NCBI GenBank assembly: GCA_963765205.1
Contig: CAVXVB010000004.1
Coordinates: 160,001-224,000 of the forward strand
Origin: an uncultured Verrucomicrobiae bacterium
GTDB taxonomy: Bacteria > Verrucomicrobiota > Verrucomicrobiia > Opitutales > JABDGR01
Length of the DNA: 64,000 nucleotides
Reading direction: 5' to 3'
The notes below the pieces were generated by a model. It was not told the origin of the DNA, ran no database searches, and saw only the letters and a program-made list of their open reading frames with translations. The position numbers were made by a program, and so were the translations under genes. Positions 955 to 13,132 of this stretch are shown here, one piece after another (the stretch's first letter is position 1; each line of letters starts with the position of its first letter).

Positions 955-2433
955 TCACTTTTGACTGCCGCCATCTGAAAAACGTCCAAGTGCCCATTGG
1001 ATTTTTGATTTGTCTCCGGGACGCGACAAAGCCTGGATTCGCGCGAGCAATTCCTTTCGGGGTATCTTCCATTCGACGGAAAGCAGCGCCGACACCGCAA
1101 CTACCCGATTCGGATTGTCAAAATATGGCCGAACTTCGTCAACCTCAAGCGACCCATCTCCTTTAAGCCACGCTAAATTTTCAAAAAATTGAAATTCATT
1201 TGATAAATGGGGATCATCTTCCTTCAGCGTTTCCAAATACGAAAATATTTGTGGAAAATAGGGAGTGGCCAATATGCCGACTCGGCCAATCCCCACCAAT
1301 CCTTTAGTTGGCCACAAAGGCGCAGAAAGCTCAACCAATTGTGCAGTTAAATCGTTTAGCCGCGCCTTGAGGCCTGCGTCCACCGCCTCTTCGGTCTCAG
1401 TCGGGTGATTACTTATGACCACGCGTTGGTAGGCGGAAAACATGTCCCGCGGCAGATTGCCGGCTTTGTCCAAACCCTTGAAAGCTGCACTCCCCCAGAT
1501 TCCCAAAATACTACCCGCCTCATCGAGCAAATCGCCGGTCGAATCATCGTGCAGTGGCTTGGTGCGGATCAATTCGAGTAAATCGGGAACTATTTCAAGT
1601 CGTTCGACGCTCCGTTCAGATATAGTTACCCAGCGCTGGTCTTGCTGGCCCAATCGCACCCGCTCGATATCGCGGTGGGCCATCTCCACGACCCATGGCA
1701 AAACTGGCTGATCCATATTTCGGAGATGAAGCTCAAGATTCGGGTGTTCGCCGGGCATGACATGAGTTTGCGCGGATGCATAGAACCAACCGTCCAATTT
1801 ATTGCTCCATTCCCAAGTAACTAGCGGATAATCTGGGTGTGCTTGCAACGTTTCTTGGCGCATCGGCGGGCCCACAGAGACTGAGCAGTGAGTTCCATCA
1901 TCTGTAATTGTTTCGGCCGACCAATTATCTGACGATGTAAGATATGCATCGGCGGTGCCGTAAAGATCGGTTGTGCTGGTAACGGCAGGGACTGAATTTT
2001 GAAAGCTAAAGAAAGTTGGGCCCTTAAACATTACTTTCACGCCAGCAACAGGCAGCCCTTTTGCATCCAGCACCGTAACCTCCACTTTCTTGCCTGTGGT
2101 TCGCGTTAAAACAAATAAAATGCAAAAAGTGAGCACGGTTCCAGCTATTGCGCCTCTGATATTCAGCGCGGCTCCAACTGGCAGGCGAATGAATGCAATA
2201 ATGAGAAAGAACACTGAGGGAACGGCCAGTATAAGCAGGCCTAAAGACGCAATTATTCCAAATATGGGCACTTGTAGCGCTGCCACAGCGGGCATAAAAA
2301 ATTTGACCGAGCCGATGGCAGCCAACGCCACCGTTGGCAACCAGGGGACCAGCGCCCATTTATGCCGGCGTCCAATCGCCACACAAATAATCAGGCCAAC
2401 ACCCTCAATGACGAGTGGAATCAAAATCTCCAT
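955..2433 (-). CDS. Hypothetical membrane-anchored protein (about 4 N-terminal TM helices, carboxypeptidase-regulatory-like beta domain, helical C-terminus)
   Basis: Long ORF 955..2454; likely ATG at 2433 (MEILIPL); VTVLDAKGLPVAGVKV...TTDLYG motif; visibly AT-richer than flanks. Confidence 0.7.
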   Translation of the reverse strand: MEILIPLVIEGVGLIICVAIGRRHKWALVPWLPTVALAAIGSVKFFMPAVAALQVPIFGIIASLGLLILAVPSVFFLIIAFIRLPVGAALNIRGAIAGTVLTFCILFVLTRTTGKKVEVTVLDAKGLPVAGVKVMFKGPTFFSFQNSVPAVTSTTDLYGTADAYLTSSDNWSAETITDDGTHCSVSVGPPMRQETLQAHPDYPLVTWEWSNKLDGWFYASAQTHVMPGEHPNLELHLRNMDQPVLPWVVEMAHRDIERVRLGQQDQRWVTISERSVERLEIVPDLLELIRTKPLHDDSTGDLLDEAGSILGIWGSAAFKGLDKAGNLPRDMFSAYQRVVISNHPTETEEAVDAGLKARLNDLTAQLVELSAPLWPTKGLVGIGRVGILATPYFPQIFSYLETLKEDDPHLSNEFQFFENLAWLKGDGSLEVDEVRPYFDNPNRVVAVSALLSVEWKIPRKELLARIQALSRPGDKSKIQWALGRFSDGGSQK

Positions 2434-2452
2434 CAAAAAATAATGGCGCGGC

Positions 2453-2474
2453 AATGACTTGCCGACAAGTCATT
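2453..2474. promoter_or_regulatory. Perfect palindrome AATGACTTG-CCGA-CAAGTCATT, putative operator or hairpin
   Basis: 9-bp perfect inverted repeat 20 bp upstream of the ATG at 2433. Confidence 0.4.
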
Positions 2475-2537: not shown

Positions 2538-5066
2538 TCACGCCACCGGCTGGTTTTGCTCGAACTTGAGGGTTTCGCCGCCGGTGCAGGTGATGCGGAT
2601 GGGTTCGCCGACGCGGACTTCGCCGCGCAGGATGGCCTCCGCCAGCGGGTCTTCGAGGAAATTCTCGACGGCGCGGCGCAGCGGACGCGCCCCGTATTTC
2701 TCGTCCCAGCCCTTGGCGAGGAGGAATTCCTTGGCGGGTTCGTCCACTTCGATTTCGATTTTCTGGCCGGCGAGGCGCTTGCGCACCTTGGTCAACTCCA
2801 GCTCGATAATCTGCTTCATGTGCGCCCTGTCGAGCGGGTGGAAAATCACGATCTGGTTGACGCGGTTGAGGAACTCCGGCTTGAAGTGCCGCTTCATCTC
2901 CTCGAGGATGCGCTCCTTGCTCTTCTCGTAGTCCCCATCGCTGGTGCGGCCCACGTCGAAGCCCATCGAGGACGGGCGCTGGAGCAGTTCCGCCCCGATG
3001 TTCGAGGTCATAATGAGGATGGTGTTGCGGAAGTCCACCGTGCGCCCGAGCGAGTCGGTCAGCCGGCCGTCTTCGAGCACCTGCAGGAGCAGCTGGACGA
3101 CGTCGGGGTGGGCCTTTTCGATTTCGTCGAAGAGGACGAGCGAATAGGGCTTGCGGCGGACGGCCTCGGTGAGCTGGCCGCCCTCCTCGTAGCCAATGTA
3201 GCCGGGGGGCGAGCCGACCAGGCGCGAGACGGAGAATTTCTCCATATACTCAGACATGTCAATTTGTAACAGCGCGTCCTGGTTGCCGAAGATGCGCTCG
3301 GCGAGGGTCTTGGCCAGGTGCGTCTTGCCGACGCCGGTGGGGCCGAGGAACATGAACGAGCCGATGGGCCGGCGCGGGTCCTTCAGGTCGGCGCGCGAGC
3401 GGCGGAGGGCCTTGGCGATGACCTCGGTGGCGTGCTCCTGGCCGATGACGTTGGCCTGGAGTTCCTTTTCGAGGTTAAGCAGCTTCTGGCTCTCCTTCTG
3501 CTCCATGCGCGCGAGCGGGATGCCCGTCCAGTCGGACACGACCTGGAGCATGTCGTCCTCGCCGACGGTGATGGTGCGGCGCTCGCGGGTGTGCTTCCAC
3601 GCTTCGATTTGCTGTTCGCGCTTGGCGCGGAGCTGTTTTTCCTGGTCGCGGAATTTGGCGGCCTCCTCGAAATGCTGCTTGGCGATGGCGTCCTCCTTTT
3701 GCGCGCAGACGGTCTCGATCTCCTTGGTCAGCGCCTCGATTTCGGGCGGGCGGTTGAGGCCCTCGATGCGCGCGCGCGCGCCAGCCTCGTCGAGCACGTC
3801 AATGGCCTTGTCGGGCAGGTAGCGGGCGGTGATGTAGCGGTCGGAAAGTTTCGCGGCCAGTTCGAGCGCCCGGTCGGAGAAGATGACCTTGTGGTGCTCC
3901 TCGTATTTCTGGCGCAGGCCCTTGAGGATAAGGATGGTTTCGTCCACGCTCGGGGCCTCGACCTTGATGGATTGGAAGCGGCGGTCAAGCGCGCTGTCCT
4001 TCTCGATATACTTGCGGTATTCGCTGAGGGTGGTTGCGCCGATGCACTGCAATTCGCCGCGCGAGAGGGCGGGCTTGAAGATGTTCGACGCGTCCATCGC
4101 GCCTTCGGCCGCGCCGGCGCCGACGATGGTGTGCAGCTCGTCAATGAAGATGATGATGTTCTTCGAGCGGCGAATTTCGTCCATGACGGCCTTGATGCGT
4201 TCCTCGAACTGGCCGCGGTATTTCGTGCCGGCAACCATGAGGGCGAGGTCGAGCGTGATGACGCGCTTGTCCAACAAAATTTCCGGCACGATGCCGGAGG
4301 CGATTTCCTGGGCGAGGCCCTCGACGATGGCCGTCTTGCCGACGCCGGCTTCGCCGATCAGGACGGGGTTGTTCTTGGTGCGGCGGCAGAGCGTCTGCAC
4401 GACGCGGCGGATTTCCGCGCGGCGGCCGATGACGGGGTCGAGTTCGCCATTGCGGGCCAGCTCGGTCAAGTCGCGGCCAAAGGCCTTGAGGGCGGGCGTC
4501 TTAATTTCCTTCTTCTCCTCGGGGTTGGCGGGCGGCGTGGGCGCGGAGCCGCTGCCGCCGGGCGCGGGCGTGCCGGCCGGTTCCTCGGGCGGGGGCGCGC
4601 CGGTTTCGCCGGAAAAATTCGGGTCCAGCTCCTGCAAAATTTCGTTGCGGCAGCGCTCGATGTCCACGTCGAGGTTCTTGAGCACGCGGGCGGCGACGCC
4701 CTCCCCTTCGCGCAGCAAGCCGAGGAGAATGTGCTCGGTGCCGATGTAGGAATGGTTGAGCATCTTCGCCTCCTTCTGCGCGAGGGCCAGGACTTTTTTC
4801 ACGCGTGGCGTATACGGAATGTTGCCTTGCGGCTTGGTCTCCGGGCCGGCACCGACTTGCTTCTCGACCGCGTTGCGCACCGTTTCCAGATCAAGACCCA
4901 TCTTTTGCAGCACGCTGACGGCCACGCCCTGGTTGAGGTTAATGAGGCCCAGCAACAAGTGCTCGGTGCCCACATAATTGTGATGGAACCGGTCGGCTTC
5001 CTTGCGCGCCAGGGCCAGCACTTGTTGGGCGCGGGGCGTGAAATTGTTTTGTGGTGTGTCGGCCAT
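2538..5066 (-). CDS. clpC: ATP-dependent Clp protease ATP-binding subunit ClpC
   Basis: Start [14 protein letters not shown] at 5066; double Clp-N repeat, Walker [13 protein letters not shown]-domain, second Walker A GPTGVGKT; downstream of mcsA-mcsB. Confidence 0.97.
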
Positions 5067-5074
5067 GGGAAAAG

Positions 5075-6547
5075 TCAGGTTGGGGGTTGGGCAGCACAGA
5101 GATTGCGCAATGGTTCGTAATCTACACGCAAATTTGTCAAAACGCGAGCCGCGATTCCATCGCCCTCGCGCAAGAGCCCCAGCAGGAGGTGTTCCAATCC
5201 CACGCGGGAGCGTCGGAGGGCGGTCGCTTCTTCCCGCGCGAGGCCCAAGGCCCGGATGACGCCGGGGGTGAAGGGTATGCTTTTGGTTGGCCCAGGCTGC
5301 GTGCCCGCGGTGATCTGCTTTCCAATTTCCGCGCGCACGGCGGCCGGTTCGACCCCCATTTTGGCGAGGAGGCCAACGACGGTGTCCCGGCGGTGGCTGA
5401 GGAGCGCAAGGAGGACATGTTCCGTTGCGATACAATCATAGTGGAACCAGTCGGCCTCGCGCCGGGCGCGGGAAAGGGCTTGAATCACGTCGGGAAGAAT
5501 CACATCGAGATGGAAGGTTTTGCGCTGCTCGCCAAAAGCCGCAGCCAAAGCCTCACCCAGCTTGCCGAGCGAGGTGCGGCCCTCAGGGGTTTGCGCCCAA
5601 CGCTCGGTTCGTTCGTCGCGCATGGCCCGAAGCTTATTTTCCTGATCGCGGCACTTCGCCGCCTCCTCGAAATTCATCTTGGCGATGGCCTCATCCTTCT
5701 GCGCGCTGACTTTATCGATTTCCTTGGACAGTTCCTCGATTTCGGATGGGCGCTTGAGGCCCGCGAGGAAGGCGCGCGTCCAGGCGTCGGCGGGCACAAC
5801 ATAGGTCTTGTCGGGCCGGGTGTGGAAGCTGCGGACGGGTGGTTTCTCGCCGCCATCCGGCGCAGGGGCGGGCCCGAACCGAGACGCCCCGGCCTCGCCG
5901 GAAAAATTCGGCCCCAGTTCCTGCAAAATTTCATTGCGGCAGCGCTCAATATCCACCCCCAGGCTCCTGAGCACTCGGGCGGCGACGCCGTCGCCCTCGC
6001 GCAGTATTCCGAGCAAAATATGTTCGGTGCCAATATTTGAGTGCTGTAGCATTCTGGCCTCCTTCTGTGCCAGAGCCAGTGCCTTTTTGACGCGGGGTGT
6101 GTAGGGGATGTTGCCGGTGGGTGGCTCTTCGGGGCCGAAGCCCACTTGCTTCTCGACGGCGGCGCGCAAAGTCTCGAAATCAAGGCCCAATTTTTGCAGC
6201 ACGCTGACACCCACGCCCTGGTTGAGGCTGATGAGGCCGAGCAGCAAGTGCTCGGTGCCAACGTAATTGTGGTGGAACCGGTCAGCTTCTTTGCGCGCCA
6301 GGGCCAGCACCCGTTGGGCGCGGGGCGTGAAATTATTCAGCGGGAGCCGGCTGGTGTGGCTGCGCGTGGCCTGCGGGTCGGCCAAGCCCGACGGCAGCAG
6401 TTTTATGGAAAAGTTCCAGGTGGATTTCTCTTTGGTCGGCGGAGGTTTGATTCCCAGCCACCGGGCCAAGCCACGCCAGGGAAACTTGGACTTTTCAGTT
6501 TTGGGCCGGGAAGGGCTGCAGCGGCGTGGTGGGGGGAGGCCCGTCAT
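5075..6547 (-). CDS. ATPase-less ClpC paralogue: Clp N-domain, M/UVR coiled coil, degenerate Clp N-domain (possibly the 3' part of one 5075-7092 gene)
   Basis: [34 protein letters not shown] near-identical to clpC; RPSEIEELSKEIDKVSAQKDEAIAKMNFEEAAKCRDQE matches the clpC M-domain; no Walker motifs. Confidence 0.8.
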   Translation of the reverse strand: MTGLPPPRRCSPSRPKTEKSKFPWRGLARWLGIKPPPTKEKSTWNFSIKLLPSGLADPQATRSHTSRLPLNNFTPRAQRVLALARKEADRFHHNYVGTEHLLLGLISLNQGVGVSVLQKLGLDFETLRAAVEKQVGFGPEEPPTGNIPYTPRVKKALALAQKEARMLQHSNIGTEHILLGILREGDGVAARVLRSLGVDIERCRNEILQELGPNFSGEAGASRFGPAPAPDGGEKPPVRSFHTRPDKTYVVPADAWTRAFLAGLKRPSEIEELSKEIDKVSAQKDEAIAKMNFEEAAKCRDQENKLRAMRDERTERWAQTPEGRTSLGKLGEALAAAFGEQRKTFHLDVILPDVIQALSRARREADWFHYDCIATEHVLLALLSHRRDTVVGLLAKMGVEPAAVRAEIGKQITAGTQPGPTKSIPFTPGVIRALGLAREEATALRRSRVGLEHLLLGLLREGDGIAARVLTNLRVDYEPLRNLCAAQPPT

Positions 6548-7092
6548 TCTCCGGTGGCGGCTTGGTCTCGCCGGGGTCCGGCGGCGGGGAACCCGGATCT
6601 TCCAGCACGACCAGCGCCGCTTTGGATTTCGGGTCCTCGGAAAAATTCGGGTCTAATTCCCGCAAAATTTCCGCGCGAAACTTCGCCACATCCAACTTGA
6701 ACTCTTGAAAGACCCGCGCGGCGGCACCTTCGCCCTCACTCAAGAGGCCAAGGAGCAGGTGCTCGGTGCCGATGTAGGAATGTTTGAGCGCCTTGGCTTC
6801 CTTTTGCGCGAGGACCCAAAATTTTCTTCACGCGAGGCGTGTAGGGAATGTTGCCTGCCGGCTTGTCGGCAGGGCCACGACCCACTTCCTTTTCCACGGC
6901 GTTGCGCGTCGTCTCCAAATCGAAGCCATGCTTTTGCAGCACGCTGACCGCCACGCCCTGGCCCAGATTGACCAGGCCCAGCAACAAGTGTTCGGCGCCC
7001 ACGTAATTGTGATGGAACCGGTCAGCCTCCTTGCGCGCCAGCGCCAGCACCTGCTGCGCGCGCGGCGTGAAGCGGATCGTAGGGTCGGACAT
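6495..7092 (-). pseudogene. Clp N-domain ORF with an apparent +1 frameshift near 6815 (5' part of the mini-ClpC or a separate Clp-N-only gene)
   Basis: [22 protein letters not shown]... to KKIL; removing one G from TTGGGTCCTC restores [35 protein letters not shown], continuing in ORF 6495..6743. Confidence 0.75.
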
Positions 7093-7177
7093 GATGGAAA
7101 AATAACCGCGCCGCCATCTCCGGTGCAAAGCGAAAAAACCGCCCCACTCCGCCCCGTTGGCGCCCCCGCCGCCAAAT

Positions 7178-8266
7178 TCAATTCTTCTCGAACGCGCGCT
7201 CGAAATTCAACGTGGGCAGCGAGGCGACCTGCTCGCGCAGGAACCGTGCGCGCGCCACGTCGCGTTTTTGCGTCTCGAGCGTGCCGCGGGCGGCGAGCTG
7301 GACGTGGCCGGGCTGGCTTTCGATCAACAGGCGGTCAATCCGCGCGCGCTCCGCTTCCGGCAGCAGAGCGAGGTCGGCGGCCAGGCGCAGGAGCGAGAGG
7401 CAGTTCATCGCCTCGACCGAGGTCATCACATGCGCGTTGCGCACGGTGCCAAACGCGCGCCCAATTTTATCAAGCAGCTTGGCCGAGTCGCTCTCCATGA
7501 GTTTCGCGCGGGCGTTTTGCTCCTGCTCGACGATGGTTTGCAGCACCGAGGTGATGCGCTTGATGATGTCCTCTTCGCTTTCACCGAGGGTCTGCTGGTT
7601 GGAAATCTGAAATATACTGCCGCTGGCCTCCGAGCCTTCGCCATACCAGCCGCGCACCGCGAGGCCCAGTTGGTTCACCGCGCGGATGGCCTGCTCCATC
7701 TGGCTGGCGAGGACGAGGCCGGGCAGGTGCATCATCACCGAAGCGCGCAGACCCGTACCCACGTTGGTCGGGCACGCGGTCAGGTAACCCAGCTCCGCCG
7801 AAAACGCGAGGTCGAGCTTTTCTTCGAGGCCGTTGTCGAGCGCGTCGGCCATCTTCCACACGCGCTTGAATTGGAAGCCTGGGCGCATCACTTGCAGGCG
7901 CAGATGGTCCTCTTCATTGATCATGACCGACATGCTTTGGTCGCGGCTGATAATGACGCCCGCGCCGGGCGAGCCGGCTGACAACTCGCGGCTGATGAGG
8001 TGCCGCTCGACGAGCACTTGCTTTTCCAAATCGTCCAGCGTCGCCAAATCGAGCACATAGGCTTTTTTCATCGATGCAGCGTCCTGCGCGGCCTGTGCGC
8101 ACCGCGCAAAAATTTCCCGCCGCTGGGCCTCTTTGGCCCACCCGGGGAACGGAAAGTCCCGCAAGTTCCGCGCCAGGCGGATGCGCGTGCTGAGCACGAT
8201 CGGCCCCGGCGGCGAGCCGCCCGGCACGACCTTGGCCGGCGTGTCCAAAATAGGGAGGATGTGCAT
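7178..8266 (-). CDS. mcsB: Protein arginine kinase McsB
   Basis: LSTRIRLARN, INEEDHLR, YLTACPTNVGTGLRAS, FQISNQQTLG motifs; synteny with mcsA and clpC. Confidence 0.95.
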   Translation of the reverse strand: MHILPILDTPAKVVPGGSPPGPIVLSTRIRLARNLRDFPFPGWAKEAQRREIFARCAQAAQDAASMKKAYVLDLATLDDLEKQVLVERHLISRELSAGSPGAGVIISRDQSMSVMINEEDHLRLQVMRPGFQFKRVWKMADALDNGLEEKLDLAFSAELGYLTACPTNVGTGLRASVMMHLPGLVLASQMEQAIRAVNQLGLAVRGWYGEGSEASGSIFQISNQQTLGESEEDIIKRITSVLQTIVEQEQNARAKLMESDSAKLLDKIGRAFGTVRNAHVMTSVEAMNCLSLLRLAADLALLPEAERARIDRLLIESQPGHVQLAARGTLETQKRDVARARFLREQVASLPTLNFERAFEKN

Positions 8267-8280
8267 GGTGGGAGGGGAAG

Positions 8281-8373
8281 AATTTTAACCGTAGATGACG
8301 CATAGGACGCAAAAATGAAGCTATGGGTGAAGGTGCTCCTTTTGTGGCCTTTGTGGTTTTTGTGGTAAAAATT
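8281..8373. repeat. Inverted degenerate 9-mer array element between mcsA and mcsB
   Basis: AATTTTAACCGTAGATGACGCATAGGACGCAAAA ... TTTTGTGGCCTTTGTGGTTTTTGTGGTAAAAATT. Confidence 0.7.
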
Positions 8374-8406
8374 GGTTGGGAAATTTTTGCTTTGAACTTA
8401 TAATAC

Positions 8407-8922
8407 TCAGGACGCCACGATGGGCGCATCCCGCTTGGCGCGCAGGGTTTCGAGTTGGTCGCGGTAGCACGCGGCCGTTTCGAAGTTTTCGCTTTGGACC
8501 GCTTCGCGAAACTGGCGTTCCAGGGATTCGATTTCGCGGGCCAATTCGAGGCGGCGCCACTGGCGCGTGGGCGTCTTGCCCTGGTGTCGGCCACCTTTGT
8601 GCAGCCCGGCCAGGAGCGGCCCCAGCTCCGCCTTCATGGTGTCGTAACAAGCCGCGCAGCCGAGCCGGCCGGATTTCTTGAAATCGCGCGCCGTGTAGCC
8701 GCATTGCTCGCAGACGAGGCTCACGCCTTCGGTTTCCTCGGCCGGGTCGGCGAAACTCTTGGCCAGCAAGGCCGCCAGCGAAAATGTCTCCGAGTCGGTC
8801 ACCCCTTTCGACTGCGCGCACTCCTCGCACAGGTCCACTTTCTGGAACTGGTTCTTGACGACTTTCGTCAGATGGACGTGGGCGGGTTTGCCGCACAAAT
8901 CGCAATGGAGGGATTCGCCCAT
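8407..8922 (-). CDS. mcsA: McsA activator (CxxC motifs plus C-terminal UVR domain)
   Basis: CDLC, CEECA, CEQCG, GRLGCAACY, HKGGRHQGK, ENFETAACYRD. Confidence 0.93.
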   Translation of the reverse strand: MGESLHCDLCGKPAHVHLTKVVKNQFQKVDLCEECAQSKGVTDSETFSLAALLAKSFADPAEETEGVSLVCEQCGYTARDFKKSGRLGCAACYDTMKAELGPLLAGLHKGGRHQGKTPTRQWRRLELAREIESLERQFREAVQSENFETAACYRDQLETLRAKRDAPIVAS

Positions 8923-8960
8923 GGTTGGTTAAATATCACCTATCGGCACTCAAGTGAAGG

Positions 8961-8976
8961 GCATAATACGTGCCAA
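8961..8976 (-). promoter_or_regulatory. Sigma54-type (-24/-12) promoter for the mcsA operon
   Basis: Minus strand TTGGCACGTATTATGC = GG-N10-GC with the TGGCACG core, about 40 bp upstream of the mcsA ATG. Confidence 0.65.
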
Positions 8977-9089
8977 AGCGCGGGAGGTAAATGCCCAAAC
9001 GGCGGGGAAATGAGTGCAAGTGCTATTGCCTTGGAAGCCGGGGCGCGGGCTTCTATCCTGCCTCCCAATCTTGGGGTGGTTGCTCAACG

Positions 9090-10670
9090 ATGTTCAAATT
9101 TTTCAAAAAGACGGCGGCTTCGTCTGCGCCGGCACCCCCGCGTCCGCCGGCGACTTACTGGCTGACGCGCTTCGTGTTATTGCGCCTGCTGGGCGCTGTG
9201 TATGCGGTCGCGTTTCTCGTTGCCGCGAACCAAAACCTCCCACTGATTGGCGCACAGGGGTTGACGCCGCTGGCGCCGTTGGTGGACGCAGCGATTAGCC
9301 AACAGGGCACATGGGCGTTGTTTCTCAAAGTGCCGTCGCTGTTCTGGTTCAACCATTCGGATGCGATGCTGCAGGGCATGGCTTGGGCGGGTTTCGCGCT
9401 GGCCTGCGTGGTGGTGGCGGGCTACGCGAACGCGCTGATCATGCTCGCGCTGTGGGCCATCTACATGTCGTTCGTACATCTCGGTCTCGAGTGGTATGGC
9501 TACGGCTGGGAAATCCAATTGCTCGAAACCGGGTTCCTCGCCGTGTTTTTGTGCCCGTTGTGGGACGCGTGCCCGTTTCCCCGCCGCGCGCCGCCGACGG
9601 TGGTGCTGTGGCTGTTTCGCTGGCTGGCTTTCCGCATCATGCTGGGCGCGGGCCTCATCAAGTTGCGCGGCGACCCGGTGTGGCGCGACTTCACCGCGTT
9701 GTATTACCACTTTGAGACGCAGCCCATTCCGAACGGCCTGAGCCGCTGGTTTCATTTTCTGCCGCCGCTGGTGCTGCGCGTGGGCGTGGGGCTGAACCAT
9801 GTGGCAGAACTGGTCGCACCCTGGTTCGTGTTCTGGCCCCGGCTAGCGCGGCACCTCGCCGGCGCGTTCATCGTGGTGTTTCAATTCACGCTGATTTTGA
9901 GCGGCAACCTTTCCTTCCTCAACTGGCTCACCATCGTTTCCGCGCTCGCGTGTTTCGACGATTCAGTTTGGCGCCGAATTTTGCCGCGAGTGCTAACGCG
10001 CCGGGCCGAGGCCGCTGCGGTATCCGCCGTGCCCTGCGCTTCCATGCAGTGGGTGGCGTGGACGTATGCGGGCATCGTCGCGTTTCTCAGTTATCCGGTG
10101 GTGGTGAATCTGGCCTCGCCACAGCAGCAGATGAATAATTCCTTCGATCCGCTGGGACTCGTCAATACCTACGGCGCGTTCGGCACCGTGGGCAAAGAGC
10201 GCCTCAACGTCGTCTTCGAGGGCACCGACGACCTCGTGCCCGATGAAAACGCGCTCTGGAAGCCGTATCCCTACAAGGGCCTGCCGGTGGATGTGATGAA
10301 GCGCCCGCCGCAAATCGCGCCCTACCAGTTGCGCCTCGATTGGCAGATGTGGTTCGCCGCGATGAGTTCTCCGGGACAATATCCCTTCACCATCAACGTC
10401 GTCTGGAAACTTTTGCACAACGACCTCGGCACCCTCAGCCTGTTTGCGGACAATCCATTTCCCGGCCAGCCCCCGCGTTTTGTGCGCGCGCGGCTTTATA
10501 AATACAGTTTCGCCCCGCCGGGCAACCCCGCAGGGGCGTATTGGACGCGCGAGGATCGCGGCAACTGGCTCCCGCCGCTGGCGGCGGACAACCCCTCGCT
10601 GCAAGCCGAACTGGCCCGCCGGCACTGGCTCGACGCCGCTCCGGCCGCAGCGCAGGCAACGCCGAAGTGA
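9090..10670 (+). CDS. Lipase maturation factor (LMF) family membrane protein
   Basis: YGWEIQLLETGFL, YYHFETQPIP, LSGNLSFLNWLT, APYQLRLDWQMWFAA motifs; ATG at 9090. Confidence 0.9.
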   Translation: MFKFFKKTAASSAPAPPRPPATYWLTRFVLLRLLGAVYAVAFLVAANQNLPLIGAQGLTPLAPLVDAAISQQGTWALFLKVPSLFWFNHSDAMLQGMAWAGFALACVVVAGYANALIMLALWAIYMSFVHLGLEWYGYGWEIQLLETGFLAVFLCPLWDACPFPRRAPPTVVLWLFRWLAFRIMLGAGLIKLRGDPVWRDFTALYYHFETQPIPNGLSRWFHFLPPLVLRVGVGLNHVAELVAPWFVFWPRLARHLAGAFIVVFQFTLILSGNLSFLNWLTIVSALACFDDSVWRRILPRVLTRRAEAAAVSAVPCASMQWVAWTYAGIVAFLSYPVVVNLASPQQQMNNSFDPLGLVNTYGAFGTVGKERLNVVFEGTDDLVPDENALWKPYPYKGLPVDVMKRPPQIAPYQLRLDWQMWFAAMSSPGQYPFTINVVWKLLHNDLGTLSLFADNPFPGQPPRFVRARLYKYSFAPPGNPAGAYWTREDRGNWLPPLAADNPSLQAELARRHWLDAAPAAAQATPK

Positions 10671-10673
10671 GGC

Positions 10674-11054
10674 TCAGCCCCCGGTGCCCGTGCCGCGCGC
10701 AGCGGTGCCGCGCGGACCGGTGCCGCGTGGGCCACGAGCCGCATCGGCAAATTCTTCGGGATGGGCTTCGGCGTAGTCAATGCCGGCCTGCACGTCTTTA
10801 ATGGCTTGGTCGACGCTCGCGATGGCCTTCTCGCGGTAGCCGCCTTTGTCGGGGCGCGCCAAATCAAGCTGGTTGCGGGCTTCGCGGAGCCGGAGGATGG
10901 ATATATCCATGTGCGGCTGATGGCTGGGGTGGGCGGTGCCGGCGGGCGGCGCGGAAGTCGTTTCCGTCGTTGCGGCTTGGGCAATGACGAAGCTGCCGCC
11001 GACGGCGGAGACGATGGTGAGTGCTGCGAGGATGGGTTTCCAGTGAGTTTTCAT
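10674..11054 (-). CDS. Small secreted helical protein
   Basis: Signal peptide; PHM...LREARNQLDLARPDKGGYREKAIASVDQAIKDVQAGIDYA; RGT-repeat tail. Confidence 0.75.
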   Translation of the reverse strand: MKTHWKPILAALTIVSAVGGSFVIAQAATTETTSAPPAGTAHPSHQPHMDISILRLREARNQLDLARPDKGGYREKAIASVDQAIKDVQAGIDYAEAHPEEFADAARGPRGTGPRGTAARGTGTGG

Positions 11055-11224
11055 GATGATTTCCTTTTGAGATGAGGGGGTGAGGAGATGAGGGGGTAGG
11101 AAAAATAGCCGGCGGGGGCCACACTAAACTATTTACTTATGATAAACATTAAACCCCGCGCCGCCACTGAAAATTCGTTAAAAAAGGGTTAAAACGAACG
11201 TGGTGTTTTTTTACGCCGGCGGTC

Positions 11225-11650
11225 TTACGTCGGTGGAATTGAAAAAATTTCCACCGCCCCGGCGCGGGCCAGTTGCGCGGGCGTCATGACGTAGACCCAG
11301 GCCTCGCCAAGCGAGGCGGACGCGGCGGAATCATCATCGGCAAAACACGCCGCGCGCACGCGTTGGTAATCGTTTTGTTCGGGCGACCGCGCGGCCTCGA
11401 AGCCTTCGAGCCGGTCGAAATTTTGCAGGACGGCATCGTCCCGCAGCACCAACCGCCAGCCCCGGATCCACCGCAAATCTTCGCCCTCCGTGGCCAGCGC
11501 CAGATAACCATCGTGTAACTGATACGCCCGCCCGCGCACCCGCGCCGGTGTGCTTTCCGCGACCCGGCCCTCGCAGAAGCGCGCCCAGTTCGACCCGCGC
11601 GGCACGAGCGAGCCGTAAACAAAGACCGCGAGATCCACATTGTCTCTCAT
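11225..11650 (-). CDS. Gamma-glutamylcyclotransferase (AIG2/GGCT-like) family protein
   Basis: VFVYGSL, FDRLEG, YQR, AWVYV motifs; ATG at 11650. Confidence 0.85.
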   Translation of the reverse strand: MRDNVDLAVFVYGSLVPRGSNWARFCEGRVAESTPARVRGRAYQLHDGYLALATEGEDLRWIRGWRLVLRDDAVLQNFDRLEGFEAARSPEQNDYQRVRAACFADDDSAASASLGEAWVYVMTPAQLARAGAVEIFSIPPT

Positions 11651-11772
11651 GCGCCCATCATGCCACCCTCGCCCGCCCCACCCAAGCCGGATTTTTCCTT
11701 GGCCCGCCGAACCCCCATCTCTATACTTTCCCGTTCCCGTCTTCGGTGCGGCCTCCGAACTCAGCATTCAGC

Positions 11773-13132
11773 ATGAACCGAGTCCACCTCAAAACTTATG
11801 GCTGCCAGATGAACGAACGCGACTCCGAAGCGGTCGCGGCGCTCCTGCGCGCGCGGGGCTATGCGCTGGTCGAGGACGAGGCGCTGGCGGACATCGTGCT
11901 GCTCAACACCTGTTCCGTGCGCGATTTGGCCGAGCAGAAGGCCATGGGCAAAGCCGCCCACCTGGCCAAACGCAAGCGGCGCAACCCGCGCTTCATCGTG
12001 GGCATTCTTGGCTGCATGGCCCAAAACCGCGGCGCGAACTTGCTTGACCGGCTGCCGGATTTGGATCTCGTCGTGGGCACGCAGAAATTCCACCGCGTGC
12101 CGGACCACCTCGATAATTTGCTCGCAACGATCCGCGGCGAAGGCCCGTGCCCCGCTACACTCGTGGGACCTCGACGCCGAGGCGGGTTCGCAAAACGAAA
12201 TCCGTGGGCACATGAGCGTGGACGGCGCACCGCAAGTCTCGGCCTACGTCTCCATCATGCAAGGGTGCAACATGCACTGCACGTTTTGCATTGTGCCGAA
12301 AACCCGCGGGTCGGAACGCTCGCGGCCACTCGACGAAATCGTGCGTGAGGCCGAAGAACTGGTGACGAACGGGACGCGCGAGATCACCTTGCTCGGGCAA
12401 ATCGTCACCAGCTACGGGCGGCGCGAATATCCGATGGTCAGCGGCAAAACACCGTTCGTACAATTGCTCGAACGCTTGCACGCGCTCCCGCAATTGCATC
12501 GCCTTCGCTTCACCTCGCCCCACCCCAGCGGGTTCAAGTCCGATTTGATCGCGGCGTATCGCGATCTTCCCAAACTCGGCGAATACGCGCACCTGCCCGT
12601 GCAAAGCGGTTCTGACCGGATGCTGCGGGCGATGAACCGGCCCTACACGCGCGATTCCTACCGGCGGCTCATTGAACAGCTGCGCGCGGCCCAGCCCAAA
12701 ATGTGGTTCTCAACGGATGTAATCGTCGGCTTCCCCGGCGAGACGGACGAGGATTTTACGGCCACACGTGATTTGTTCCGCGACGTCGGCTTCGAGATGG
12801 CGTATCTGTTCAAATACTCAACCCGCACTGGCACGCCCGCGGCAGAAATGCCCGACCAGGTGCCCGCCGAAGTCGCCGAGGCGCGCCACAGGGAATTGAT
12901 GGCACTACTAGAACAACGCTCACTCGCCCGCCATCAGGAACTCGTCGGTACGACGCAGGAAGTGCTCGCCCAGGAACCGGCGCGGCGTCCTCCAGGCCGC
13001 TTGCTGGGGCGCACGCGCGGCTTTCGCAAGGTGTTCTTTGACGCGCCCAGGCACCGCCTCGGCGAACTTGTCCCCGTGCGCATCACCCGCGCGACGGTTG
13101 CAGCGCTGGAGGGGGAGATTGGGGAATGCTGA
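11773..13132 (+). CDS. miaB: tRNA-2-methylthio-N6-dimethylallyladenosine synthase MiaB with an apparent +1 frameshift near 12166 (likely sequencing error)
   Basis: KTYGCQMNERDS and LNTCSVR in one frame; GCNMHCTFC radical SAM motif and TRAM domain in the next; removing one G from GTGGGACCTC joins them. Confidence 0.9.

Follow-up and report, generated by a model that had tools for sequence, protein, structure and literature searches.

The activity of the unfoldase ClpC is set by its N- and M-domains. In Staphylococcus aureus ClpC, the N-domain residues E106, T7 and R9 belong to one phospho-arginine (pArg) site, pArg1, and E32 to a second, pArg2; E106 and E32 determine binding, and activation occurs through pArg1 (PMC12583610). 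Binding of pArg at the N-domain activates ClpC allosterically, while contacts between M-domains repress it (PMC12583610, PMC5699869). These resting-state M-M contacts are mediated by F436, R443 and D444, and F436 also binds MecA (PMC5699869). Among bacterial N-domain paralogues without an ATPase, those that have been studied, ClpC2 and ClpC3, are actinobacterial. ClpC2 has pArg and cyclomarin as ligands, is a competitor of ClpC1 and has been proposed to be a holdase (PMC10030653; bioRxiv 10.64898/2026.06.30.735635); it is also a DNA-binding repressor (PMC10030653). Here we characterize a gene from an uncultured Opitutales bacterium (phylum Verrucomicrobiota) that encodes ClpC-type N-domains and a ClpC-type M coil in the absence of a motor, and that lies between mcsB, the gene for a protein-arginine kinase, and clpC. 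The analysed stretch of 64,000 nucleotides (hereafter, the window) is G000:C4:160001-224000, where G000 is the 4.02 Mb, 92% complete source genome.

The gene is the third in the minus-strand order mcsA, mcsB, N-N-M-N gene, clpC, and its stop codon lies 8 bp ahead of the clpC ATG. In the encoded protein, Pfam identifies six Clp_N half-repeats, which make up three complete N-domains, together with a single UVR coil (E 2e-9) and no AAA family; the 671-aa read-through contains no Walker A motif. The resulting architecture is N1-linker-N2-linker-lid remnant-M coil-N3, without an ATPase (Table 1). An earlier note on this DNA, made from the sequence alone, had described three Clp N-domains and an M coil with no AAA+ module between mcsB and clpC, ending 8 bp before the clpC start; Pfam and the sequence bear out both statements.

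As assembled, the gene is spread over three reading frames. If a single base is removed at each of 6511 and 6815, the product is a protein of 671 aa with no internal stop, just as the earlier note had proposed. Both break regions were examined in Logan contigs from four of seven listed short-read runs, aligned over positions 4900-12600 (the depth, 2.4-7.5, is low; runs X1-X3 belong to a single study, in which the source sample is possibly included). The contigs are otherwise free of differences, and the base at 6511 is absent from X2 and X3, that at 6815 from X1 and X2. Since neither extra base occurs in the short-read contigs, both frameshifts are errors of the assembly. Further, because contigs bridge the junctions mcsB/gene (6766-7432), M/N3 (5272-5812) and gene/clpC (4956-5197), there is no misassembly at these points. 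Such errors occur elsewhere in the assembly: among 166 open reading frames (ORFs) with G000 orthologues, taken from 20 stretches of the related genomes G003 and G004, 11 change frame in G000, clpB included (two pairs of close matches among the 11 may each represent one event). Finally, the orthologue P0005, a single ORF of 581 aa, reads through both G000 break positions. The N-N-M-N gene is real and encodes one intact protein of 671 aa. Two frameshifts within 2 kb of window sequence would suit a pseudogene or a misassembly, but in view of the short-read contigs, the ORFs broken genome-wide and the existence of intact orthologues, this explanation is largely refuted and scarcely credible.

Two other assembly indels were seen, one in clpB (G000:C7, near 360493) and one at window position 12165, in a neighbouring gene that is probably miaB-like, to judge by its sequence features; the X1 contig also lacks the base at 12165. 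Frameshifts elsewhere in G000 are thus to be distrusted. A single 142-base contig from RNA run X6 (depth 3) covers the gene end and clpC start without differences, which is too little to show transcription; most of the gene has no RNA contig in that run.

Table 1. Features of the mcsA-mcsB-clpC locus, in window coordinates.
Feature	Position	Strand	Evidence or remarks
ATPase-less N-N-M-N gene, 671 aa after removal of two assembly-error bases	5075..7092	-	Pfam, short-read contigs, read-through
N1, ClpC-type N-domain, residues 6-149, 78% identity to own ClpC N-domain	6645..7077	-	pArg1 complete, pArg2 with T31A (as in P0005)
N2, ClpC-type N-domain, residues 252-395, 85% identity to own ClpC N-domain	5906..6337	-	both pArg sites, K85 and R122 kept
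Decayed copy of last AAA1-lid helix of ClpC, PDKT for PDKA	5756..5818	-	collinearity with ClpC
M/UVR coiled coil copied from ClpC, residues 446-500	5591..5755	-	F474, R481, D482 correspond to S. aureus F436, R443, D444
N3, diverged terminal N-domain, residues 529-668	5087..5506	-	pArg1 lost; T31/E32/T81 kept; R83 to G
Assembly error 1, a superfluous base in a CCC run	6815..6817	.	absent in X1 and X2 contigs
Assembly error 2, a superfluous base in AA, inside 102-aa Pro-rich linker	6511..6512	.	absent in X2 and X3 contigs
Intact clpC of 842 aa with both Walker A motifs	2538..5066	-	
mcsB protein-arginine kinase, 362 aa	7178..8266	-	
mcsA, 171 aa, CxxC motifs and UVR coil	8407..8922	-	
Candidate operon promoter ahead of mcsA, a sigma-54-like site TGGCAC-N6-TGC	8961..8976	-	

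The three N-domains differ in how much of the ClpC pArg sites they retain. Residues are numbered as in Bacillus subtilis and S. aureus ClpC by alignment; T105, T31, T81 and R83 are presumably pArg-site residues as well, an assignment based on repeat symmetry and PDB 5HBN. By sequence, N2 possesses all eight residues of the two pockets, and the equivalents of F6, Y80 and K85 are kept in both N1 and N2. Across the eight ClpC-like copies of the four full-length orthologues, pArg1 (T7/R9/T105/E106) is complete in every one and pArg2 in five. The motifs were correctly described in the earlier note: T31A in copy 1, an intact set in copy 2, and LPD, TPG and LEH in copy 3. In all five terminal domains examined, pArg1 is lost, T31, E32 and T81 are kept, and R83 is replaced by G or K; these five domains have in common 13 residues that differ from ClpC and are spread along the domain. 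Family-specific invariants of N3 include an R-to-W change in EADW and the end DY..LR..CA. Despite its loss of pArg1, the terminal domain is a conserved clade of its own. An AlphaFold2 model of a 490-aa part (5-row alignment; pLDDT 68.5, pTM 0.41) shows N2, an M helical hairpin and N3 folded separately, with disordered linkers, and Foldseek matches the model to solved ClpC N-domains (target TM about 0.9 for N2).

The stretch from N2 through linker and lid remnant to M is collinear with ClpC 5-176 and 418-498, and in this respect looks like a clpC copy from which D1 was deleted. The coil aligns with the M-domains of the family's ClpC proteins at scores of 202-216, and with McsA at 86; McsA was rejected as its source on these grounds. 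The coil is, as the earlier note held, a copy of ClpC's own M-domain with equivalents of F436, R443 and D444, while nothing points to the docking on McsA that was also suggested there. Nor is the coil a defining part: it is found in just two of six orthologues, G000 (which keeps F, R and D) and P0015 (F, R and E). A motif in P0005, RLDKA, may correspond to the lid remnant. The coil would have been either gained in the G000/P0015 line or lost elsewhere.

Orthologues of the gene show that it has a history within its family. Three of ten family genomes carry it between mcsB and clpC, namely G000 (N-N-M-N), G003 (N-N-N; one ORF, 528 aa) and G008 (N-N'-N-N; one ORF, 668 aa); mcsB directly adjoins clpC in six, and G001 gave no match. 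Protein searches added three more: P0005 (N-N-N), P0015 (partial, N-M-N) and P0234 (partial, no M). P0005 probably occupies the same operon position, because its upstream extension matches the window's mcsB-gene spacer. In a careful tree of 32 rows, from which the degenerate second domain of G008 was left out (a quick 80-row tree served as a hint only), the terminal domains of the six orthologues form one clade with support 100/100, shaped like the species tree. Moreover, the mcsB-clpC spacer of G005 holds a decayed remnant of the gene's 3' end (the last ~75 bases, reading DIAARVL...; score 87, reached by 0/500 shuffles), while the five other mcsB-clpC spacers have no match of this kind. The clade and the remnant together indicate that the gene was already present in the family's ancestor, with three or more losses since. 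What is ancestral to this Opitutales family is the N-N-N core, and the local evolution proposed in the earlier note is not supported. The three genomes that keep the gene are the largest (4.4-5.5 Mb corrected, versus 3.0-3.5 Mb), although as kin they are not independent.

Beyond the family, 177 of 201 genomes of the order have an N-domain match (with at most 19 candidates scored per genome), and more than one match occurs only in G000, G003 and G008. In a sample of the class, four of 161 genomes have more than one, the other three extras not being beside mcsB or clpC. A metagenome scan with the M+N3 stretch gave no match in its first pass; L058, an orthologous locus from the second scan, was not counted as a new case, being identical to L121 over 12,633 bases.

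Selection on the gene was assessed by the ratio of nonsynonymous to synonymous divergence (dN/dS; pairwise NG86, 300 bootstraps, with synonymous sites near saturation in some pairs). For the terminal domain, dN/dS is 0.41 (0.24-0.62) between G000 and G003, 0.22 (0.11-0.40) between G000 and G008, and 0.34 (0.21-0.56) between G003 and G008; comparison values are 0.06-0.15 for clpC and mcsB and 0.18-0.34 for mcsA. Against their own clpC, N1 gives 0.19 and N2 0.12 at a dS of about 0.86, and the M coil 0.36 (0.14-0.86) against the clpC M-domain. The gene is under purifying selection, the bootstrap intervals for the terminal domain, N1 and N2 excluding 1; the claim of one intact, selected gene with pArg-site residues kept is supported. 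Between G000 and G003, dS is 0.80 for clpC and 0.97 for mcsB, so the copies, at about 0.86, are roughly as old as this split. Recent gene conversion from clpC in G000 was ruled out by the same dS of 0.86 and by a longest identical tract of 24 nt.

Motor-less N-domain proteins form a wider class. Of the best 150 representatives for the M+N3 stretch, 149 are without AAA; our own profile additionally finds an M coil in 15 (10 of the 15 pass the Pfam UVR cut-off); judged by their N-termini, most of these 15 look planctomycetal. The ESM Atlas contains Clp_N+UVR clusters without AAA of 57, 95 and 88 members, mostly from Actinomycetota. The N+M combination thus recurs in other phyla and, contrary to what had been supposed, is not unique. 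In Planctomycetota, the phylum of G204, 12 of 71 genomes have more than one N-domain match. G204 itself reads mcsA-mcsB-[four N-domains, contig end]; among the loci of 10 of the 11 other multi-match genomes, G432 reads mcsA-mcsB-[N only]-clpC and G433 [N-N]-clpC, and in the remaining eight the extra locus does not lie upstream of clpC. By comparison, none of 81 small genomes of G349's phylum has more than one match, and 80 have one. The planctomycetal loci and the N+M representatives together argue that architecture and operon position recur independently. A full-text literature search, with most subscription papers outside its scope, found no multi-N-domain or N+M protein in an mcsAB-clpC operon. 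A weak search for relatives in which the terminal domain is fused to ClpC found none among 23 longer proteins listed, none of them with AAA.

ClpC-type N-domains were also encountered in several other settings. These include (i) fusions to other enzymes (P0029-P0054, P0022, P0360, P0381, L098, L225), the partners being Gfo/Idh/MocA oxidoreductases (1-4 copies), ornithine carbamoyltransferase, a glyoxalase domain and a putative QueD-like domain; (ii) a Verrucomicrobiota family (P0006, P0008, P0009, P0012, P0013, L151, L152, L157, L177) of 1-4 N-domains plus a small conserved C-terminal domain with no Pfam match, whose fetched loci are not beside mcsB or clpC; (iii) proteins of 1,500-1,800 aa with 7-9 N-domains and no AAA module (P0224, P0363-P0380); (iv) P0264 (799 aa), three N-domains fused to an AAA module, by which multi-N ClpC fusions exist; (v) L226 (G331:C2, 4711-6765), which adjoins clpB and encodes 685 aa comprising N, a degenerate D1, M and an unrelated C-terminal domain; and (vi) L232 (G444:C63), a tandem array of no fewer than four N-AAA genes, from a genome of the planctomycete phylum.

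The best explanation of the gene's origin, from its sequence, is that partial tandem duplications of clpC gave rise to an ATPase-less ClpC paralogue. By analogy with ClpC2, the protein may be a multivalent buffer (a sponge or holdase) for ligands of the ClpC N-domain, a proposal to which we give about an even chance. In this scheme, (i) the protein would be made together with McsAB and ClpC under stress, (ii) N1 and N2 would bind pArg-marked or unfolded proteins with avidity, in competition with ClpC, (iii) this competition would damp ClpC activation, substrates being held until ClpCP clears them, (iv) N3 would have a different conserved job, in oligomerisation or with a partner, and (v) the M coil, which a single lineage gained or retained, would tether the buffer to ClpC M-domains or to itself. 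The lack of the coil in four of six orthologues fits a binding role that needs no docking. G000 has two clpP genes and three low-molecular-weight phosphatases.

A number of points weigh against a selected pArg buffer. At least one pArg site is kept in 142 of 148 ATPase-less representatives and is not specific to this gene; the TEH/TPR motifs are also structural, forming N-M contacts in the resting state, and their retention is therefore no proof of pArg binding. Our literature search found no demonstration of arginine phosphorylation in Verrucomicrobiota among the papers listed. Position upstream of clpC is weak functional evidence, because tandem duplication alone puts a copy there, and the absence of the gene from the locus in six of nine scored family genomes means that it is dispensable. 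Lastly, in the paralogue comparisons dN/dS also takes in the clpC branch, which is under strong constraint, and the interval for lid plus M against clpC (0.62; 0.29-1.19) includes 1.

Other functions can be set beside the buffer. The coil might make the protein an adaptor or activator, pairing head-to-head with ClpC M-domains via the F436 equivalent, opening the resting state like MecA and handing over pArg substrates from N1 and N2. The coil does keep equivalents of the three ClpC residues that make M-M contacts, and it is better conserved than the adjacent linker (46/55 versus 12/25 identical residues between G000 and P0015); every one of the 15 N+M representatives has the tip Phe and 14 have the Arg, and UVR-UVR pairing has been suggested for plastid ClpF and ClpC (PMC7966870). 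However, a coil missing from four of six orthologues cannot explain why the family retains the gene; M-docking is thus not the family's core role, although it is possible in the G000 lineage. An M mimic could equally cap and stabilise the inactive state, or merely self-dimerise, and unregulated ClpC activation is toxic (PMC5699869). On balance we consider an adaptor unlikely. The natural variants with M (G000, P0015) and without it (P0005, G003, G008) offer a comparison for activating, capping or tethering. A broader idea, and to us just as doubtful, is that bacteria with McsAB-ClpC repeatedly built a trans-acting regulator from ClpC control parts: N-domains and M mimic would enter the resting-state M-M contacts and switch the protease by pArg load, with N3 binding a further partner. 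If true, nature would have produced a BacPROTAC-like scaffold, with separate origins in Opitutales, Planctomycetota and Actinomycetota.

Two further explanations strike us as quite improbable, the second marginally the more so. The protein could be a decoy for foreign ligands of the ClpC N-domain (cyclic peptide antibiotics, phage adaptor-like proteins), diverged copies widening the ligand range. Cyclomarin A is sequestered by ClpC2, for which phage ligands of the ClpC N-domain have been named as further possible targets (PMC10030653); here, the retained F6, Y80 and K85 equivalents, a copy number of 3 or 4 N-domains with patchy distribution, and the soil and peat labels of the metagenome runs containing the window would all agree with a decoy. 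Yet the divergence is purifying rather than diversifying, the gene has neither a ClpC2-type operator nearby nor a DNA-binding family, and its locus is a housekeeping stress operon, not a defence locus. We know of no such N-domain ligand for this phylum. Alternatively, the gene could be a near-neutral product of repeated clpC duplication, weakly kept, for example as a harmless fold or for clpC expression signals in its 3' end. The three or more losses, retention in the three largest genomes, a third-position GC content below that of clpC (0.74 versus 0.88) and the fusion of N-domains to many unrelated enzymes elsewhere speak for this view, as do the promoter-like sequences left at the gene end, TTGCGC-N16-TATAAT in the G005 remnant and TTGCGT-N16-TATAAT in the last codons of G003. 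Against it, open frames of 528-671 codons have persisted over a dS of about 1 or more with dN/dS intervals that exclude 1, and the fully supported terminal-domain clade follows the species tree with 13 new invariant residues.

Signals that could control the operon were also noted. The candidate sigma-54-like promoter was called on the sigma-54 consensus; in the form TGGC(A/C)C-N6-TGC it occurs upstream of mcsA in each of the six genus genomes that have an mcsA locus, and it is absent from G007, G008 and G009. Near the mcsA start, an inverted motif TTCAC-N14/15-GTGA (window 8935-8958, minus strand) is common to most of the family (loci compared with the window: L029, L031, L032, L033, L037). 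G000 has rpoN, no match to CtsR was found in the 92%-complete genome, and control of mcsA-mcsB-clpC is possibly CtsR-independent. Just ahead of clpC, TTGCGY-N16-TATAAT is present in the G005 remnant (L037) and at the G003 gene end (L029), and G000 has TTGCGC but not TATAAT; no sigma-70 consensus was found in the window ahead of the N-N-M-N gene or clpC. An internal clpC promoter inside the gene's 3' end is possible on this pattern. Downstream of clpC lies a gene for a 499-aa membrane protein (window 955-2454, minus strand) with a weak Ig-like match, where G008 has a different small membrane gene.

Compared with described proteins, the N-N-M-N gene does not reveal a new kind of system. It has in common with ClpC (B. 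subtilis, S. aureus; PDB 5HBN, 3PXG, 6EM8) the N-domain and a UVR-type M-domain with its tip residues, but with three N-domains and without D1, D2 or Walker A it cannot alone unfold proteins or feed ClpP. No MecA homology was found by Pfam. Among plastid proteins, ClpT1/ClpT2 are Clp-N-fold accessory proteins of plants and algae with a single distant N-domain on the ClpP ring, and ClpF is a UVR-bearing adaptor for which the review names no Clp_N repeats (PMC7966870). ClpT (PDB 4Y0B/4Y0C) is matched at just E 4e-12, and the N-N-M-N protein, bacterial and with three N-domains, is not a single double-Clp-N plastid protein of this type. Database proteins annotated "Clp repeat N-terminal/UvrB/uvrC motif" likewise combine Clp_N and UVR without AAA, but have separate origins, mostly 1-2 N-domains, and lack this family's terminal domain. 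ClpC3 reportedly also has a coil resembling the M-domain; if so, there would be a studied precedent for a motor-less N+M protein, and the novelty would be lower.

The closest counterparts are ClpC2 and ClpC3, cited in the earlier note as N-domain-only decoys, a description that is not supported. ClpC2 is likewise an ATPase-less ClpC N-domain paralogue with a pArg site; it has one N-domain, one such site and a further region without homology, and it acts as a repressor at its own promoter (PMC10030653). ClpC3 of Mycolicibacterium smegmatis, a small ATPase-less Clp protein, competes for ClpC1 ligands (PMC12678426, PMC10864484); it is without the pArg receptor and confined to actinobacteria according to a review, in whose passages it is not a multi-N protein of an mcsAB operon (PMC12678426). 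The protein described here differs from ClpC2 in its three N-domains, its optional M coil, its location in the mcsAB-clpC operon and its probably independent derivation from the local clpC. ClpC2 chains match it at E 1e-17 to 8e-16 (ClpC2 is absent from our trees), Pfam finds no DNA-binding family in it, and no ClpC2-type operator (CGTCAAC-n5-GTTGACG) lies near the gene, the one match with 3 mismatches in 64 kb being distant, where 3.3 are expected by chance. By analogy, then, the protein may work like ClpC2 and ClpC3, probably without being a member of either. The gene points to a large class of proteins with several N-domains, which might weaken the action of compounds directed at ClpC, and would represent a separate emergence of the ClpC2/ClpC3 idea, within the kinase-unfoldase operon of a diderm phylum.

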